DNA of 64,000 bases from an uncultured Anaerolineae bacterium (GCA_938049385.1 CALIBQ010000035.1:21278-85277); one strand, 5' to 3'. Positions 18,751 through 26,830 are shown, counted from the stretch's first letter. Notes: generated by a model from the letters alone, not told the origin. Program-made: numbers and translations.

Positions 18751-20528
18751 TCGCGCAGGAACCGCGCCGGCCATCACCCCTTGTTTTCATCCTGCTGGCC
18801 TACTTCATCCTGGCGGCCGCGTACAGCGTCGTCGTGCCGCTGGGTGAGGGGCCGGATGAGGCGCCGCATTTCACCGTCATCCGCTACATCGTCCAGCACC
18901 GGCACTTGCCGAGCACCGCGGAAGAGCATGAGGCTTTTCAGCCGCCGCTGTATTATCTCCTGGGCGCCGGCCTGACCCTCTGGGCAGATTACAGCGGTTA
19001 CACTATCAAGGCCAACGCCGATTATTCGCTGGAACCCGGCCGGCCGCACAATCTCTTGCTCCACACCTCCGAGGAATCCTGGCCGTACCGTGGGTGGGCG
19101 ATGGCCTGGCACATCCTGCGCCTGTTCTCCGTGCTCTGCGGCGCGCTCACGGTCTGGGCGGTGTACGCGCTGGGTCGCGCGGCCTTCCCAAACGAGCCTG
19201 CGGTGGCTGTGCTCATGGCCGGCATCACCGCCTTTACCCCCGGCTTCCTGTTCCTCTCCGCCATGGTCAACAACGACAACCTGGCCGCGGCGCTCAGCGC
19301 CTGCCTGCTCTGGCAGGCCGCCCAGGTCATGCGCGGCCGGCATGAAGGCTGGCGTATTGCCGGCCTGGGCATCGCCCTGGGGCTGGGCGTGCTGTCCAAG
19401 GCCAACGTGGGGCTGACCGCCGTGCCCATCGGTGCCGCCCTGGCCTATGCCGCCTGGCGGCGGGAAGGTAGCCTGCCGGGCACTATCCGGCGGGTACTGC
19501 GCTGGGGGGTAACAGCGGCCGGCCTGGCGCTGGCGGTCTGCGGCTGGTGGTTCTGGCACAACTATCAGGCACACGGCGACCTGACCGGCTGGTCGTTCAT
19601 CCTGCAGACCAACGCCCTGCGGGAAGGCCCGCTGACGCCGGCGGTGCTCTGGTGGCTGGCAAAGGGCCTGTTCACCTCGTTCTGGTTGCGATGGCAGGGG
19701 CTGGTACTGCCGGGCTGGATGTATGCGCTCCTGCTGGCGCTCTGCCTGACGGCGGCCGCCGGCTGGATTCGGCTGGTCCTGCGCCGGCGGTCCATTTTCC
19801 CCGAAACCTGGGCCATCCTGGCCATGCTGACCCTGCAGTCGCTGGTGGTGCTGGCCGCACTGCTCAAGTGGACCGCCACGGTGCTGGGCACCGACCAGGC
19901 GCGCCTGATATATCCAGCACTGCCGGCCATCGCTCTCTTTCTGGCGAAGGGTTTGCTGGCATGGGCGCCGGCGCGCTACCAACAAACCGCCGGCGGCGGC
20001 CTGGTTACCGCTTTCGCCGTCTTTGGCCTGTTCACCTTGTTCGCCGCTGTCGCGCCCACTTTCGCCCCTCCGACCCCCATTACCGTAGAGGCACTGCCGG
20101 CCGATACGGTGAAACAAGCCGTTCGGTTCCAGGGAGGCGATTCATCAGCGTCCATTGAGCTGATCGGATACCGACTGCGCACGCCGAAGGTGCGCGCCGG
20201 CGGCTGGGTGGTCTTTGACCTGTACTGGCGCGCCAGCGCGAGGATTCCCGGCGATATCTGGCTGTCCATCGCCCTGGCGCAGGATGTGGATCATCCGCTG
20301 GTGGTCAAGGATGGTTCGCCCTCCGCCGGCCGCGACACCACCGACCGCTGGCCGGCCGGCGTCATTATTCCCGCCGAGCACTGGTTGCGCGTGCCGGAAC
20401 ATGCCGCGCCCGGGGAATACACCCTCTGGCTGGGGCTACATCCATTCGGGAGCTGGGACTGGCTAAGACCATCTCCATCGCCCGACCCGTACCGCCTGCC
20501 GCTGGCCGCTGTCACTGTAACGCAGTAA
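18747..20528 (+). CDS. GT-C fold membrane glycosyltransferase-like protein (ArnT/PMT/DUF2142-like)
   Basis: GEGPDEAPHF acidic first loop, QPPLYY, VNNDNL, LSKA, ~11 TM; C-terminal beta domain homologous to that of the upstream gene (DLYW...WPAGVIIP...APGEYTLWLG). Confidence 0.8.
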   Translation: MIAQEPRRPSPLVFILLAYFILAAAYSVVVPLGEGPDEAPHFTVIRYIVQHRHLPSTAEEHEAFQPPLYYLLGAGLTLWADYSGYTIKANADYSLEPGRPHNLLLHTSEESWPYRGWAMAWHILRLFSVLCGALTVWAVYALGRAAFPNEPAVAVLMAGITAFTPGFLFLSAMVNNDNLAAALSACLLWQAAQVMRGRHEGWRIAGLGIALGLGVLSKANVGLTAVPIGAALAYAAWRREGSLPGTIRRVLRWGVTAAGLALAVCGWWFWHNYQAHGDLTGWSFILQTNALREGPLTPAVLWWLAKGLFTSFWLRWQGLVLPGWMYALLLALCLTAAAGWIRLVLRRRSIFPETWAILAMLTLQSLVVLAALLKWTATVLGTDQARLIYPALPAIALFLAKGLLAWAPARYQQTAGGGLVTAFAVFGLFTLFAAVAPTFAPPTPITVEALPADTVKQAVRFQGGDSSASIELIGYRLRTPKVRAGGWVVFDLYWRASARIPGDIWLSIALAQDVDHPLVVKDGSPSAGRDTTDRWPAGVIIPAEHWLRVPEHAAPGEYTLWLGLHPFGSWDWLRPSPSPDPYRLPLAAVTVTQ

Positions 20529-20533
20529 AATAA

Positions 20534-20568
20534 CAAAGGGGTGCAGTGAATTGTCCTGCACCCCTTTG
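20534..20568. terminator. Bidirectional intrinsic terminator
   Basis: Perfect 13-bp stem CAAAGGGGTGCAG / CTGCACCCCTTTG, flanked by an A-rich run, between convergent operons. Confidence 0.85.
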
Positions 20569-20590: not shown

Positions 20591-21925
20591 CTATTCGAGC
20601 TTGTCCTCCCAGCGGATGGGAGAGAAGGTCAGCCCGGTCAGCACCTTCGGGTAGAAGTCGGTGGACTTCTGCGGCATCTTCTCCCCTTTCGCCGCGCAAG
20701 CGGCTACCTGCTGAGGCTTGGTGGGGTTCAGCAGGAAGAGGAAGTTAGCCTCGCCGGCGGCCACCGCGGTGTAGCCCGGGCCGGGATCGCGCAGGTAGTC
20801 AATGTTCTCCTTGCGCTCGATGCTCTCCTTGGTCAGCCCCATGATGTGCTCCAGGATAAGCTCATGCAGGATAGAGACATCCAGGGCCTTCCACTCCGGC
20901 GCGCGCGGTTCCTTGACCACCTGGTCCATGGCCGAGAGGTCGCGCAGGGTCAGCAGGTAATACCCCTTGCCGTCGTAGAAGCCGATGACATGCGCCTGAT
21001 TCGCCAGCTCCCGCATCCGGGCTTCCAGCGCCTCGCGGCTGGGCAGTTCCTGCACGTCGAAGTACTGGCGGGCCTTGTCGAGGATTTCGCCGGCGCTCAT
21101 GTGGGTGTACGAATGGATCAAACGGTGCGTCGGCAGGATCACCAGGCCGGGGTCGCTCATGCTGACCAGCGTAGCCATGACGTAGTTGAAGGCGTGCTGT
21201 TCAGTCCAGTCCGGATGCTTGGCGCGCATCTCATCGCGATAGGCCAGCGCCGTCTCGTAGCGGTGATGGCCGTCCGCAATAATGAGATTGCGCTTGGGTG
21301 CCATCTCCTGCTGGATGGCCGCCAGCACTTTCGGGTCATCAATCACCCAGACCTTGTGCCGCACATCCGACTCACCCACCGCCACCGCGTCGATGTCCGG
21401 CTCCCGCGTGATGTATGGGTCCAGCAGTTGATTGATGCGGTTCTCCGGGTCCGGATACAGGATGAAGATCTGTCCCAGGTGAACCTCCATGGCCCGCAGG
21501 AGGTTCAGGCGGTCCACTTTCGGCCCGGAAAGGGTGCGTTCGTGCGGCAGGATGGTGCCCTCGTCAAAGGGCACCAGCTTGATCATCCCGATGATGCCGC
21601 GCCGCGCCAGGCGGTCGTCCGTGCCCGGGACGGTGAACTCCTCGGTGTAAGCGTAGAAGCACGGCTTGGGGTCCCGGGCTAGCACGCCCTCTTTCAACCA
21701 ATCGTCGAAGTACTTGCGGGCGCGGGTGTAGACGTTGTTGGTCTCGTTGTCATCGGGGAAGCGCTTGCCCAGGCTCATCCGCACGACGTTGTACGGGGAC
21801 AGGTTGTAGTATGTCTCCTGCAGTTTCTCGTCAATGCGGTCGTAGGGCAGGGCAATGACTTTGTCCAGCGGCCCGACTTTGGCGGGATTATAGCGTACTG
21901 CTCGGAAAGATTTTACAACGGCCAT
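20591..21925 (-). CDS. DUF1015 family protein (ParB/Srx-like fold; candidate free-serine kinase)
   Basis: PYD, ILPHERTL, IIADGHHRYETA, LPTHRL, MPQKSTDFYPK; last gene of the riboswitch-led operon. Confidence 0.88.
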   Translation of the reverse strand: MAVVKSFRAVRYNPAKVGPLDKVIALPYDRIDEKLQETYYNLSPYNVVRMSLGKRFPDDNETNNVYTRARKYFDDWLKEGVLARDPKPCFYAYTEEFTVPGTDDRLARRGIIGMIKLVPFDEGTILPHERTLSGPKVDRLNLLRAMEVHLGQIFILYPDPENRINQLLDPYITREPDIDAVAVGESDVRHKVWVIDDPKVLAAIQQEMAPKRNLIIADGHHRYETALAYRDEMRAKHPDWTEQHAFNYVMATLVSMSDPGLVILPTHRLIHSYTHMSAGEILDKARQYFDVQELPSREALEARMRELANQAHVIGFYDGKGYYLLTLRDLSAMDQVVKEPRAPEWKALDVSILHELILEHIMGLTKESIERKENIDYLRDPGPGYTAVAAGEANFLFLLNPTKPQQVAACAAKGEKMPQKSTDFYPKVLTGLTFSPIRWEDKLE

Positions 21926-21956
21926 GAGCTACTCCTCTGGCGAAAGATATCAGGCA

Positions 21957-22865
21957 TCAGCCGGCATGCGCCTTGGCGAACTCGATGACGATGCTGGCCA
22001 CTTCATCGCCCACCCGGTCCTGGGCCTCTTTGGTCTGCGCGCCGATGTGCGGCGAGCAGATGACATTCGGATGGGAGACCAAGGCCATGTTGTTGGTCGG
22101 CTCTTCGGCGAAGACGTCAAGGGCCGCGCCGGCGACCTTGCCGCTGTTCAGCGCTTCCAGCAGGGCTTCCTCATCCACGGTGCCGCCGCGCCCGCAGTGG
22201 ACGATGTACACGCCGTCCTTCATCATGGCGAACTGCTCCCGGCTCAGCATGTTGGCCGTCTCCGGGGTCAGCGGGACATGCATGGAGATAAAGTCGGAGG
22301 TGCGGAGCAGTTCCTCCAGCGGGACCTGGCGGGCACCCGGCATTTCCGTGGGCGTGCGGCGGTAGAAGATGCAGTTCATGCCCAGGGCATTGGCGCGTTT
22401 GATGAGCTCCGCGCCGATGCGGCCGGCGCCGATGACACCCAGGGTCTTGCCGGCCAGCTCGATGCCCTCAAACTGCTTCTTCTCCCACTTGCCGGCCTTC
22501 ATCGAGGCAGTGGCCTGCGGGATACTGCGCGCCAGCGCGAACATAAAGCCCAGCGCCAGCTCCGCCACCGAGGCCGAGGAAGCCGCCGGCGTGTTCATGA
22601 CCTTGATGCCCTTCGCCTCGGCATATTCGACATCAATGTTGTCCAAGCCGACGCCGCCGCGCACGATGAGCTTCATGTCCGTCGCGGCGTCAATGGCCGG
22701 CTTACGGAACTTGGTGGCCGAGCGGACAATGGCCACGTGGAAGCCGGGCACCGTAGCAACCAGCTCCTCCGGGGTCATGCCGGTTTTGACGACGACCTCC
22801 AGGCCGGCGTCCCGCATGGCCTGCACGGCGCTGTCTGCCAGCTTATCACATACCAGAACCTTCAT
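21957..22865 (-). CDS. serA: D-3-phosphoglycerate dehydrogenase / D-2-hydroxyacid dehydrogenase (short form, no ACT domain)
   Basis: RSATK, RGGVGLDNID, NTPAASSASVAE, GKTLGVIGAGRIG, HVPLTPET, RGGTVDE, ALDVFAEEP, PHIGAQTKEAQ. Confidence 0.85.
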   Translation of the reverse strand: MKVLVCDKLADSAVQAMRDAGLEVVVKTGMTPEELVATVPGFHVAIVRSATKFRKPAIDAATDMKLIVRGGVGLDNIDVEYAEAKGIKVMNTPAASSASVAELALGFMFALARSIPQATASMKAGKWEKKQFEGIELAGKTLGVIGAGRIGAELIKRANALGMNCIFYRRTPTEMPGARQVPLEELLRTSDFISMHVPLTPETANMLSREQFAMMKDGVYIVHCGRGGTVDEEALLEALNSGKVAGAALDVFAEEPTNNMALVSHPNVICSPHIGAQTKEAQDRVGDEVASIVIEFAKAHAG

Positions 22866-22893
22866 CTCGATCCCTCCTTATCCCGTCACACCT

Positions 22894-23961
22894 TCAGCTC
22901 AGCTTGAGGATGTCTTCGATCTGGGCGGTGAGCCAGCGCAGATCGTCCAGGGTCAGGTCGCCCATATGCGCGATGCGGAAGCACTTGCCCTTCAGCGGGC
23001 CGTAGCCGTCGGAAATCATGGCGCCGCGCCGGCCCAACTCGTCGTTGAGCGCCTTGATGTCCACCTCGCGGGTGTTGACGATGTTGGTGACGGTGAGGGA
23101 GAGATAGCGCTCGTCGGAGAACAGCGCCCAGTACTTGCGCGCCCAATCCTGGACGAACTTCGCCATGTCCTTGTGGCGCTGCCAGCGGTTCTCCAGGCCT
23201 TCCGCCAGGATGTCGTCCATCTGCTTGTTGAGCGCCTGGATGAGGCTGATGGCCGGCGTCGCCGGGGTCTGATTCTTCTGATAGAATTTGTACATGTCAA
23301 TGAAGTCGAAATACAGGCCGCGATACGGCACCGTCTCCGCCTTCTTGAGCGCCTTCTCGCTGACCGCGCAGACGGTCAGTCCGGGCGGCAGGGCAAAGCA
23401 CTTCTGCACGCCGGCCAGCAGGACGTCGATGCCCAGCCGGTCGAACTCGATCTTGACGCCGGCCATGGAGCTGACCGAGTCCACCAGAAACATAACGTCA
23501 GGGTATTTCTTCATCACCTCGGCGATTTCCTCGATGGGGTTCATGACGCCGGTGGAGGTCTCGTTGTGCACCACGGTTACAGCGTCATACTGGCCGGTGG
23601 CCAGCTTCTCGTCAATCATCTCGGGCAGGACGGCTTTGCCAATGGGAACTTCGAGGACATCGCAGTCCTTGCCGTTGGCCTTGGTGATCTCATGCCAGCG
23701 GCGGGAGAACTCGCCGCAGACGGTGTTGAGGCACTTCTTGGCCACGCAGTTGCGGATGGCCGCTTCCATGACACCGGTGGACGATGAGGCGAAGAGGAAC
23801 ACCGGTTGGGTGGTGTAGAGCAGTTTCTGGAGCTTCGGGGTGACCGCGGCCTGCAGGTCGGAGTACTCTTTGGCGCGGTGGCCAATCATCGGGACGGCCT
23901 GCGCCTGCAGGATTTCCTCACGCACATGGGTTGGGCCAGGGATAAAGAGCTTCTTGTACAT
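22894..23961 (-). CDS. Class V PLP aminotransferase (serine-pyruvate / alanine-glyoxylate / phosphoserine type)
   Basis: FIPGPT, IGHR, SSSTGVMEAA, VHNETSTG, VDSVSS, GVQKCFALPPGL (PLP Lys), TPATPA, FRIAHMG. Confidence 0.92.
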   Translation of the reverse strand: MYKKLFIPGPTHVREEILQAQAVPMIGHRAKEYSDLQAAVTPKLQKLLYTTQPVFLFASSSTGVMEAAIRNCVAKKCLNTVCGEFSRRWHEITKANGKDCDVLEVPIGKAVLPEMIDEKLATGQYDAVTVVHNETSTGVMNPIEEIAEVMKKYPDVMFLVDSVSSMAGVKIEFDRLGIDVLLAGVQKCFALPPGLTVCAVSEKALKKAETVPYRGLYFDFIDMYKFYQKNQTPATPAISLIQALNKQMDDILAEGLENRWQRHKDMAKFVQDWARKYWALFSDERYLSLTVTNIVNTREVDIKALNDELGRRGAMISDGYGPLKGKCFRIAHMGDLTLDDLRWLTAQIEDILKLS

Positions 23962-24050
23962 CGGAACCCTCCTTGTGTGAAATAATCAGGAAACGCCTCG
24001 TGTTATGGCTGAACCGGCAGGGTATGCCGGCGAAACCCCTCGGCCGCTCC

Positions 24051-24091
24051 AAACAAAAAGTGGGAACAGGAAACCTGCACCTGTATCCCAC
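24051..24091 (-). terminator. Riboswitch expression-platform terminator
   Basis: Minus strand GTGGGA-TACAGG...CCTGT-TCCCAC followed by TTTTTGTTT. Its 5' arm overlaps the 3' strand of aptamer-2 P1. Confidence 0.8.
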
Positions 24092-24294
24092 TCTGTCCCT
24101 GGACCTGAGAGATTTCCCCAGAGGTGGTATGCGGCATGGGAAACTGGGGTTGCCCCTTCGGTGTGGCGTCCACACTGCGTGGCGCCAGCTCTCCAGAGTG
24201 CGCCTCAACGCGATCCTTTTGCCTGAGAGTTTAGCAGGTGCGCTTGCCATTCCCCTTCGGCGGCCGGCCAGGCCGGCACTCTCTCGCGCTGAGG
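24089..24294 (-). ncRNA. Tandem glycine riboswitch
   Basis: Minus strand aptamer 1: P1 CCTCAGCGCG/CGCGTTGAGG, GAGAG...GCCGAAGGGG...AAACTCTCAGGCAAAAGGA. Aptamer 2: CACTCTGGAGAG...CACCGAAGGGGCAA...AATCTCTCAGGT...GACAGAGTG. These are hallmark glycine aptamer conserved strings. Confidence 0.92.
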
Positions 24295-24340
24295 TGTAAA
24301 TATGCACTTGATGAGATAAAGCTTCAACTAACCCACTATA

Positions 24341-24369
24341 AGTGTACCACAACCTGGCAAACTTGTCAA
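24341..24369 (-). promoter_or_regulatory. sigma70 promoter upstream of glycine riboswitch
   Basis: Minus strand TTGACA-N17-TACACT with TGn. Confidence 0.75.
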
Positions 24370-24422: not shown

Positions 24423-24451
24423 TTGACATACTTCGGAAAAGCCCATATACT
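24423..24451 (+). promoter_or_regulatory. sigma70 promoter of two-component operon
   Basis: TTGACA-N17-TATACT. Confidence 0.7.
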
Positions 24452-24569: not shown

Positions 24570-26168
24570 ATGAATCTCGCAGTGCTCCTCGAGGAACAGA
24601 GGAACGCCATCGCCCAACGTTGGGCGGAGCTGATCCAGCGCGAGATGCCGCATACGCGATACGGCCAATGCGATATCGAACAGATCACCTATTTCAATCA
24701 CGTCGCCATTGACCTTATCCTGTCGCTGATGCGTTCCCCCAATACCCTCCCTTCCTGGATCTTTGATGAACCGCGTCGAAAATATCTGGCGTTGGGTGTT
24801 CCGCTGAGCGATGTGATCGAATCTGGCCTGCTCCTGCAGGAGACGTTGTGCAAGGAGGTACTGCAGGGCGCCGGCGAAACGGTGTACCGCGACATCCTCC
24901 CCGAACTCCAGTATATGGTGCGCAAATTCGTCACCCTGGTCGTGGATTACTACGCCGGTCAGCTCAATCTCCAGCTCGAGGAGCAGCGCGCCCGCTTGGC
25001 CTTTCTTCTGGACATCATCCGCCGTGCCAGCCGCACCCTCTCCGTCGAACAGCAGATTGACCTCGCGATTCAGAGCCTGAAGTCGGCGATAGGCACCGAG
25101 TACGGCATGCTCTATGTCATGAACGAGGAGCGCACCGCCGGCATCTTGCGAGGCGATATTGACGCCTTCCCTCCATCCCGGGACCCCAGTGTTCGAGAAT
25201 CGTTCCGCTATCCGCTTCCCCTTGCGAACACCGTCTTCACCCGCAAAGTGGCTGCTACCGGCCGGCCGGTCATCTATCAGGAAGAAGCCCCGGAGCGGGC
25301 GGATGACGAGATCGTCCAAACCTGTAGAAGATGGGATGTCCGCGCCATGCTGGGCATCCCATTCGTCGTGGAAGAGCGTATAGTCGCGGTGGGCCTGCTG
25401 TTTTCCACTGCCTCATCCGCTCTCATTTCTGACGAAAGGGTCGACCTGGCGGTGGATATCGCCAAGGCATTGGCGCCGGCGCTGGCCAATGCCCTGCTCC
25501 ACCAGCGTGTGAAGCAGTTGGCCATCATTGAGGAGCGGACCCGCCTGGCGCAGGAGCTTCACGATGACCTGGCGCAACTGCTCGGTGTCATGCAGTTGAA
25601 GGCCTCTCTGGCGGAACAACTGCTTGTCGAGGGCGATCTGAACCGGACGCTATCGCTACTGCTGGAGCTCCAAGAGACATTGAGCAAAGCGTATATTGAT
25701 ATGCGGGAGATCATCTTCAATCTGCGGGTCGCCGGCGCCGGCGGCAAAGCTCCGCTCCTGCCGGCGCTCCAGGAATACCTGGCGGACCTGAAGCGCTATT
25801 ACGGCATTGATGTCCTGCTGGAGGTCCGAGGATCGGTCACTGCCCAGCTCTCCGACCAAGAGCGCCTTCAGGTTATCCGCATCATTCAAGAGGCGCTGAC
25901 CAACGCCCGCAAGCATGCCAGCGCTACCCAGATCGGCCTGCGCCTATCCCAGGACCTGCATGCCTTGAGAATCTGCGTTAAGGACAACGGTCTGGGGTTT
26001 GACCCGACCCAGCTCGAGGATATCGGCAAAGAGCGGTTCGGACTGCAGGTCATGCGCGAGCGTGCCGCCAGCATCGGCGCCTCCATCGCCCTTTACTCAC
26101 AGCCCGGCCAGGGAACGCGGCTCACGCTGGAACTGCCGCTGACCGCCGGCCGAGGAGGTCCGCAGTGA
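24570..26168 (+). CDS. Soluble NarX/LiaS-type histidine kinase (N-terminal RsbRD_N/globin-like helical domain, GAF, HisKA_3, HATPase)
   Basis: EERTRLAQELHDDLAQ H-box, QEALTNARKHASA, KDNGLGFD, FGLQVMRERA, PGQGT; no TM segments. Confidence 0.9.
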   Translation: MNLAVLLEEQRNAIAQRWAELIQREMPHTRYGQCDIEQITYFNHVAIDLILSLMRSPNTLPSWIFDEPRRKYLALGVPLSDVIESGLLLQETLCKEVLQGAGETVYRDILPELQYMVRKFVTLVVDYYAGQLNLQLEEQRARLAFLLDIIRRASRTLSVEQQIDLAIQSLKSAIGTEYGMLYVMNEERTAGILRGDIDAFPPSRDPSVRESFRYPLPLANTVFTRKVAATGRPVIYQEEAPERADDEIVQTCRRWDVRAMLGIPFVVEERIVAVGLLFSTASSALISDERVDLAVDIAKALAPALANALLHQRVKQLAIIEERTRLAQELHDDLAQLLGVMQLKASLAEQLLVEGDLNRTLSLLLELQETLSKAYIDMREIIFNLRVAGAGGKAPLLPALQEYLADLKRYYGIDVLLEVRGSVTAQLSDQERLQVIRIIQEALTNARKHASATQIGLRLSQDLHALRICVKDNGLGFDPTQLEDIGKERFGLQVMRERAASIGASIALYSQPGQGTRLTLELPLTAGRGGPQ

Positions 26169-26830
26169 GTGCATCCATACGAGTTCTGGTGGTGGATGAC
26201 CATTTGCTGTTCCGCCGCGGTGTCCTGGCGGCCCTGGCTTCACGCCCTCACATCGAAGTGGTCGGGGAGGCCGGCGACGGCGAGGAAGCCGTCCGACTGG
26301 CGCGCCAGACCCAACCCGATGTCATCCTCATGGATATCGCCATGCCGGTATGCAGTGGGTTGGAGGCCACCCGCCAGATCAAGCGCGAACTGCCGCGGGT
26401 GAAGATCATTATGCTCACGGTTTCCGAGGAAGATGAGGCGCTCTTCGAAGCGATCCGCGCCGGCGCCGAGGGCTATCTGCTCAAAGACCTAAAGGTCAAC
26501 CAGCTTTTCGACGCCATCGAATCCGTGGTGCGCGGCGAGGCCCCGCTTTCCGGCGCCATCGCCGCCAAAATCCTGCGGGAGTTTCAGCGCTCGGCCCCTG
26601 CGCATGCCGCCGCATCGGGGCTTCCCGAGGCTCTCTCCGACAGGGAGATCGAAATCCTCACCCTGGTCGGTCAGGGCTTGTCCAATAAGGAAATCGCCGA
26701 GCGGCTGTACATTTCCGAGAGCACGGTGAAGAATCATCTGCGTACCATCCTGGACAAACTGCATCTCCGCAACCGCATCCAGGCCGCCATCTACGCCGCA
26801 CGCATCGGCCTGGTCAAAGACGTGCTCTGA
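26165..26830 (+). CDS. NarL/LuxR-family response regulator
   Basis: VLVVDDH, PDVILMDIAMP, GYLLKD, LSDREIEIL...GLSNKEIAERLYISESTVKNH; GTG start overlapping the kinase stop. Confidence 0.95.
   Translation: MSASIRVLVVDDHLLFRRGVLAALASRPHIEVVGEAGDGEEAVRLARQTQPDVILMDIAMPVCSGLEATRQIKRELPRVKIIMLTVSEEDEALFEAIRAGAEGYLLKDLKVNQLFDAIESVVRGEAPLSGAIAAKILREFQRSAPAHAAASGLPEALSDREIEILTLVGQGLSNKEIAERLYISESTVKNHLRTILDKLHLRNRIQAAIYAARIGLVKDVL

Follow-up and report, generated by a model that had tools for sequence, protein, structure and literature searches.

The 64,000-nt stretch of DNA from an uncultured Anaerolineae bacterium analysed here (GCA_938049385.1, CALIBQ010000035.1:21278-85277; the whole stretch is called the window, and all positions refer to it) carries a three-gene operon preceded by a leader with two tandem glycine aptamers and a transcription terminator. 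The genes encode a class-V aminotransferase, a short 3-phosphoglycerate dehydrogenase (PGDH) and a DUF1015 protein that is a putative serine kinase. We read the system as a canonical glycine-ON riboswitch over an operon for the phosphorylated serine pathway in its DUF1015 form, through which glycine carbon would pass via serine and phosphoserine to 3-phosphoglycerate (3-PG), and give this reading about an even chance of being right. The element belongs to kinds already known, and what it regulates is unusual and informative. Leader and operon lie on the minus strand, and the parts of the leader are as follows.

24341..24369, minus strand: sigma-70-like promoter, TTGACA-17-TACACT with a TG extension (10/12 consensus matches)
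24201..24296, minus strand: glycine aptamer 1, P1 helix CCUCAGCGCG/CGCGUUGAGG (full-length match to the RF00504 model)
24086..24203, minus strand: glycine aptamer 2, with a long P3b region (custom covariance model R1)
24051..24092, minus strand: intrinsic terminator, the expression platform (minimum free energy (MFE) fold and U-tract)
23968..23972, minus strand: Shine-Dalgarno (SD) sequence GGAGG of the first gene (read from the sequence)

An earlier note on this DNA had proposed a consensus promoter, a tandem glycine aptamer and a terminator whose GTGGGA arm overlaps the 3′ strand of the aptamer-2 P1 helix, so that glycine would cause read-through. Promoter, aptamers and overlap were all found, and read-through is what the predicted folds indicate. 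TTGACA...TAnAAT-like promoters were also present 30–40 nt 5′ of aptamer 1 at related loci. Aptamer 1 scored 63.1 bits against RF00504 (gathering score 32, E 1e-10). The RF00504 scan suggested in the same note succeeded for this aptamer and left aptamer 2 unreported, even at E≤10. Because Rfam gave no match to aptamer 2, a custom model (R1) was built from 33 aptamers of other loci, with the window and the conspecific locus L070 excluded. The RNAalifold structure in R1 comprised P3 only (13 pairs), so that the model is mostly sequence-driven. R1 detected aptamer 2 at 50.4 bits (E 1.3e-8) and also recovered aptamer 1. The P1 helix of aptamer 2 consists of CACUCUG (24200..24194) and CAGAGUG (24095..24089), its P3b region is unusually long by eye, and its core as read from the sequence (GGAGAG, ACCGAAGGGGCAA and CUCUCAGG...GGGAC) is intact, as is the conserved core of aptamer 1. 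With P1 enforced, aptamer 2 folded as a three-way junction. Standard pipelines will annotate the tandem riboswitches of this lineage as singlets.

The terminator comprises a 5′ arm (AGUGGGAUACAGG, 24092..24080), a 9-nt loop, a 3′ arm (CCUGUUCCCACU, 24070..24059) and the tract UUUUGUUU (24058..24051); on account of its loop length it was not picked up by a simple terminator scan. Four nucleotides, AGUG, are common to the 5′ arm and the 3′ strand of aptamer-2 P1. The unconstrained, ligand-free MFE fold of the leader contained the full terminator, and enforcing both P1 helices removed it from the MFE fold. The hairpin was calculated at −16.9 kcal/mol when intact and at −7.7 kcal/mol without the four shared bases, and the stem that then remains is set apart from the U-tract. 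Predicted pairing of the first-gene SD was unaffected by the P1 state. Because P1 and the terminator stem share bases, glycine binding is predicted to give read-through. The operon would remain off until glycine builds up; bound glycine would then stabilise aptamer-2 P1 and so withhold the lowest four bases from the terminator stem. This is the classical design of a glycine-ON switch, a prediction well supported by the anatomy of the leader. All polarity calls, here and below, are structure predictions.

A metagenome scan with the aminotransferase yielded 80 loci at 68–95% identity, and nearly all of those reaching far enough also carried the dehydrogenase and DUF1015 genes. Glycine aptamers lay directly 5′ of the aminotransferase gene in 39 of the 80 loci (30 of the 39 with two model hits), and this recurrence means that the leader–operon arrangement is not a product of chance. 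A hairpin and U-tract homologous to the window terminator were found in ca. 30 loci, with the terminator 5′ arm starting within the P1 3′ strand (CAGAGG, CAGGGG or CAGAGU). The stems differ among these loci (e.g. GUGGGA, GUAAGGA, GAGGACG and GGGGGAAUG), and compensatory changes were seen in 5/9 aligned pairs. The conspecific contigs L001 and L070 had the same leader architecture as the window.

In the aminotransferase tree, riboswitch loci fell on several deep Anaerolineae branches with riboswitch-free loci interspersed, a pattern that fits an old association with repeated loss; both this tree and the DUF1015 tree (below) are quick trees, and the topology of the former is indicative only. A DUF1015 protein 96% identical to that of the window occurs in a contig of ‘Anaerolineae bacterium isolate RSWS7’, and synteny of the three genes was seen in Anaerolineae, Bipolaricaulota-type metagenome-assembled genomes, a Clostridium and a Thermosyntropha. 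Among 69 reference-genome DUF1015 loci, glycine aptamers were detected at the conspecific locus only. Near DUF1015 genes of other phyla, the custom model detected none in 68 genome loci, and the Rfam model none in the 22 of these to which it was applied.

The three genes of the operon are as follows.

22894..23961, minus strand: class-V AGXT-type aminotransferase, 355 aa (PF00266, 83.7 bits)
21957..22865, minus strand: short 3-phosphoglycerate dehydrogenase, 302 aa (TIGR01327)
20591..21925, minus strand: DUF1015/SerBK, putative serine kinase, 444 aa (PF06245)

The dehydrogenase consists of the catalytic core only, the ASB and ACT domains being absent. It matched TIGR01327 at 365.7 bits over model positions 1–303 of 525; a score below the 454-bit cut-off is expected because the C-terminal half is lacking. 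The core of human PHGDH aligned to it at 297 bits and ca. 50% identity, with RSATK, GRGG, EEP and PH(I/L)GA segments aligned between the two proteins, which we take to carry the substrate-binding and catalytic residues. A PGDH-type core with the Arg/Glu/His triad was found, and glyoxylate/hydroxypyruvate reductases scored just ca. 180 bits. We class the enzyme as of PGDH type, not as a hydroxypyruvate reductase.

For the aminotransferase, all NCBIfam equivalogs, including the SerC and BhcA models, scored far under their cut-offs: 34.8, 81.5 and 35.4 bits for the SerC models TIGR01364, TIGR01366 and PRK05355 (cut-offs 443, 401 and 253) and 224.5 bits for BhcA (cut-off 650). Its closest PDB entry was 2dr1, a Pyrococcus ‘serine aminotransferase’ (230 bits), followed by the serine:glyoxylate aminotransferase (SGAT) 6pk1 (154 bits). 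By these scores the enzyme is AGXT-type, not canonical SerC. What suggests that it serves as the phosphoserine aminotransferase of the cassette is its synteny with PGDH and DUF1015 genes, which is kept across phyla. The ‘serC’ of the earlier note is this AGXT-type enzyme.

The DUF1015 protein matched PF06245 at 329 bits over profile positions 1–325 of 325 and has no sequence relative in the PDB. An AlphaFold2 model (pLDDT 94.8) was searched against the PDB with Foldseek. At E≤1e-3 nine matches were returned, all of them free serine kinases: Thermococcus SerK (5x0*), its Pyrococcus homologue 1vk1 and SbnI, with E values of 1e-7 to 8e-5 and target-normalised TM scores of 0.5–0.6. PYD, HE and IADGHHR columns were invariant in 32 diverse DUF1015 members. 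The predicted fold is thus like that of a free serine kinase, and the protein is a putative serine kinase. The same kinase resemblance has been described for the family, which was named SerBK (GapMind 2026, PMC13759103).

If the kinase runs forward, the operon would serve as an outlet for glycine. In glycine excess, serine hydroxymethyltransferase (SHMT) and the glycine-cleavage T, H and P proteins would yield serine. SerBK would phosphorylate this serine, transamination would give 3-phosphohydroxypyruvate and reduction 3-PG. The NADH from glycine cleavage would be reused by the dehydrogenase, making the route a redox-neutral, gluconeogenic outlet for glycine carbon. We infer that overall two glycine, ATP and 2-oxoglutarate would be turned into 3-PG, CO2, NH3 and glutamate, with NADH in balance. 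The leader and its target suggest that surplus glycine is routed in this way, via serine and phosphoserine, into glycolysis.

Published data bear on this direction. The serine kinase reaction strongly favours phosphoserine (the equilibrium constant of the reverse reaction was estimated at 4e-4), the Bacteroides DUF1015 gene BT1151 is required for the use of serine as a nitrogen source, and a comparable SerK route has been proposed in Thermococcus (PMC13759103). Glycine riboswitches are also known to control sdaA, a gene of serine catabolism (PMC3766115). We favour the catabolic direction because of the phosphoserine-favouring kinase step, the need for BT1151 and the sdaA precedent, and because induction by an end product is ill-suited to synthesis. 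The direction of flux is our inference, the best fit to the thermodynamics, the kinase fold, the PGDH-type dehydrogenase and the published Bacteroides fitness data. The physiological direction of SerBK, as a serine-consuming kinase or as a serine-making enzyme in reverse, was left open by its describers (GapMind 2026, PMC13759103), and the conservation of a glycine-ON switch across dozens of Anaerolineae lineages speaks independently, from the side of regulation, for the serine-consuming one. If true, glycine carbon would join central metabolism at 3-PG through phosphoserine, with redox balance, by a route missing from current models of glycine assimilation and of the reductive glycine pathway. 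The leader and operon, with and without glycine, would make a simple test system.

A neighbouring gene at related loci also links the operon to glycine/serine interconversion. At 16 related loci, a divergent gene for an SHMT-GcvT fusion of 1157 aa (PF00464 and PF01571) adjoins the leader; the riboswitch is present at 12 of these loci, including four of the OFF-type loci described below. This neighbour does not fix the direction of the operon. At one such locus the fusion gene occupies L136:173-3643 (minus strand). The fusion gene has no glycine aptamer of its own 5′ of it.

Several observations weigh against a glycine-induced, serine-consuming operon. A DUF1015 gene complements E. coli serB, and the cassette is a documented route of serine synthesis (PMC13759103). 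A T-box (126 bits, L050:3553-3758) stands ahead of this cassette in Clostridium sp. cel8, and its specifier, from the alignment, probably reads UCC (Ser); a Ser-type T-box in this position implies biosynthetic logic in that organism. No SHMT-GcvT gene was present within the window. The riboswitch was absent from 31 of the 70 loci with at least 300 nt upstream (the other 10 of the 80 were too short), and for the platform of six related loci, with its standard three-helix architecture, the predicted polarity is glycine-OFF. In the window itself the overlap is just 4 nt, and an 8-bp remnant hairpin (−7.7 kcal/mol) persists with P1 formed.

The serB complementation (PMC13759103), as a case of the cassette supplying serine elsewhere, and the cel8 T-box would both suit an operon that is glycine-ON and biosynthetic, in which glycine signals heavy one-carbon demand (SHMT consumes serine) and feeds forward to serine synthesis from 3-PG. 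SHMT-GcvT adjacency is compatible with either direction. This is the main rival, but we consider it unlikely, since end-product logic expects repression by glycine, not induction, thermodynamics disfavour the reverse kinase step (PMC13759103), and a cell with no other serine route would starve if that route depended almost absolutely on glycine. The small overlap raises a different doubt, namely that there is no working glycine-ON switch here, the overlap being too small or the element decaying, with constitutive terminator leak or other control in its place. The persisting remnant hairpin would agree with this, as would relatives in which the element decays (mutated cores in L072, loss of aptamer 2 in L139, a degenerate aptamer 2 in L080 and L085). 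We hold it improbable: both aptamer cores of the window are intact, overlap and U-tract are kept in ca. 30 loci with covarying stems, and the conspecific L001 and L070 retain the same leader architecture. As for the chemistry, a non-phosphorylated route would combine a serine:glyoxylate/pyruvate aminotransferase, a hydroxypyruvate reductase and DUF1015 as a glycerate kinase. Membership of the aminotransferase in the AGXT family and its best named relatives (the ‘serine aminotransferase’ 2dr1, SGAT 6pk1 and BhcA) would be in keeping with it, but the dehydrogenase scored 297 bits to PHGDH against ca. 180 to glyoxylate/hydroxypyruvate reductases and keeps RSATK, the DUF1015 model resembles serine kinases, not glycerate kinases, and a member of the family complements serB (PMC13759103), so that this route has very little chance of being the true one. 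The preference of the earlier note for the phosphorylated route over the serine–hydroxypyruvate–glycerate alternative is supported by the same dehydrogenase scores and by the serine-kinase-like DUF1015 model.

The glycine-ON, serine-consuming reading can be set beside known systems. The Bacillus subtilis gcvT-gcvPA-gcvPB switch (RF00504, ON, intrinsic terminator) also has two tandem aptamers, and there as in the window the 3′ strand of aptamer-2 P1 overlaps the 5′ arm of the terminator, with read-through predicted on glycine. The B. subtilis switch controls the glycine cleavage system, whereas that of the window precedes serC-like, serA and DUF1015 genes; the window also differs in an aptamer-2 P3b long enough for the Rfam model to miss. 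SerK (Thermococcus kodakarensis, ADP-dependent) and Staphylococcus SbnI share their fold with the DUF1015 model, and SerK and the route proposed here both lead from serine via phosphoserine to 3-PG (as cited in PMC13759103). The DUF1015 putative kinase has no detectable sequence similarity to either and is ca. 200 residues longer.

Clusters of serC, serA and DUF1015 genes have been reported in Clostridioides difficile, Clostridium botulinum (CBO1128) and Bacteroides thetaiotaomicron (BT1151) (GapMind 2026, PMC13759103). These resemble the window in the gene trio, in the DUF1015 family (PF06245) and in the SerK/SbnI-like fold. They were discussed in terms of serine synthesis, a catabolic role being considered possible in Bacteroides, and riboswitches did not enter the discussion (PMC13759103); in contrast, a glycine riboswitch lies ahead of the operon in the window and in many Anaerolineae relatives.

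COG4198 is presumably the COG that corresponds to DUF1015. Glycine riboswitches had been found 5′ of serC and COG4198 genes in metagenomes by 2007 (Kazanov 2007, PMC2211319), and in 2013 at serCA of Clostridium cellulolyticum H10 (in a supplement) and at sdaA of beta-proteobacteria and Mycobacterium (Sun 2013, PMC3766115). Both studies thus have in common with the window a glycine aptamer ahead of serC/serA-type genes, but they listed the association only, in Proteobacteria and Firmicutes, without analysing polarity or drawing a connection to a serine kinase; aptamers in the COG4198 cases were single, whereas those of the window are in tandem. In the literature searched, no paper linked a glycine riboswitch to a serine kinase route. 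The RNA and the gene trio were already known; the regulatory argument for the direction of the pathway appears to be unpublished.

The six loci with a predicted OFF-type platform (L075, L102, L107, L120, L142 and L144) kept both aptamers and the P1-overlapping hairpin and had lost the U-tract. At each of them the platform sits ca. 90 nt before the start codon of the aminotransferase gene. The variant hairpin has a 3′ arm, GCGCCUCC, with complementarity to GGAGGCG in the ribosome-binding region, after which come a U-run and the start codon. Pairing of arm and SD region (CGCCUCCUA/UAGGAGGCG) shows a compensatory change from A-U to G-C in L075. When the P1 3′ strand was blocked as a mimic of bound glycine, CCUCC was freed and paired with the SD. 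In three loci the predicted probability of an unpaired SD was 0.27–0.29 before blocking and 0.00 after it; in the remaining three it was ca. 0 either way. In the OFF clade, a terminator without its U-tract appears to have been turned into the anti-sequestrator of a new helix that would hide the ribosome-binding site.

In the DUF1015 tree, the four OFF-type loci whose DUF1015 gene is complete group as a single clade (99% in the SH-like approximate likelihood ratio test, SH-aLRT), nested among ON-type loci. PHD replaces PYD at residue 28 in all five OFF-type loci with a DUF1015 N-terminus (L075, L107, L120, L142 and L144). PYD was found in 33/33 other metagenome loci with a DUF1015 N-terminus, in 64/66 genome loci and in 117/120 database homologues; of the exceptions among genome loci, PLD was an artefact of the regular expression and PID occurred in L069. 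The coincidence of PHD with the OFF type is a single evolutionary event, and is a lead rather than a statistic. The change from Tyr to His on the same branch hints that regulation and enzyme direction switched together. The apparent inversion from ON to OFF at orthologous operons would be a natural example of expression platform evolution. Taken more broadly, we tentatively propose that a large group of Anaerolineae has a glycine-induced ‘reverse phosphoserine pathway’, in which a DUF1015 serine kinase takes the place of the glycerate kinase of the serine/glycerate route, and that one nested clade has inverted polarity and the Tyr-to-His change in PYD; this wider proposal is possible but falls short of probable.

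Other departures from the window leader were seen at single loci. In L072:150-450, where the aminotransferase is 81% identical, both aptamer cores are mutated (CCGCAGGGGC, CUCUCUGGC and CACAAGAGCGA) and neither covariance model detected the aptamers; the riboswitch there is either decaying or changed in specificity. Most of aptamer 2 and the terminator are lost in L139:1670-1750, where a short ACCAATCT-type repeat is present. The leaders of L080:405-667 and L085:3738-4000 carry long insertions, and their aptamer-2 core is degenerate (CGCCCAGG); they recall singlet riboswitches with a ghost aptamer. A riboswitch-free sister clade consists of L002, L003, L057, L133, L138, L145, L148 and L149. 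Its members share a promoter, AAGUUGCC-N17-UGGUACAAU, ca. 200 nt upstream of the aminotransferase gene, and a short hairpin at the SD. A new RNA motif in this clade was considered and rejected: its 150–200-nt leaders had no conserved or covarying structure and no Rfam match.

Upstream of the operon, a near-consensus promoter (TTGACA-17-TATACT, 11/12; 24423-24451, plus strand) precedes divergent genes for a GAF-HisKA_3 histidine kinase and a LuxR-type response regulator (24570-26830, plus strand). This two-component pair was rejected as a co-regulator, since it is a neighbour of the operon in this one species alone (L001 and L070). Open reading frames between the dehydrogenase and DUF1015 genes at some loci were likewise set aside, as by inspection they look like unrelated insertions. 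The source organism was found in DNA runs (hot-spring and marine metagenomes) and in no RNA run, where at most 10% of its sequence words matched. The operon ends at the following feature.

20527..20564, both strands: bidirectional terminator hairpin, GGGGUGCAG/CUGCACCCC (read from the sequence)

A consensus terminator scan did not list this hairpin, which has a 9-nt loop. It has U-tracts at both sides and separates the operon from a convergent PMT_2 glycosyltransferase gene.

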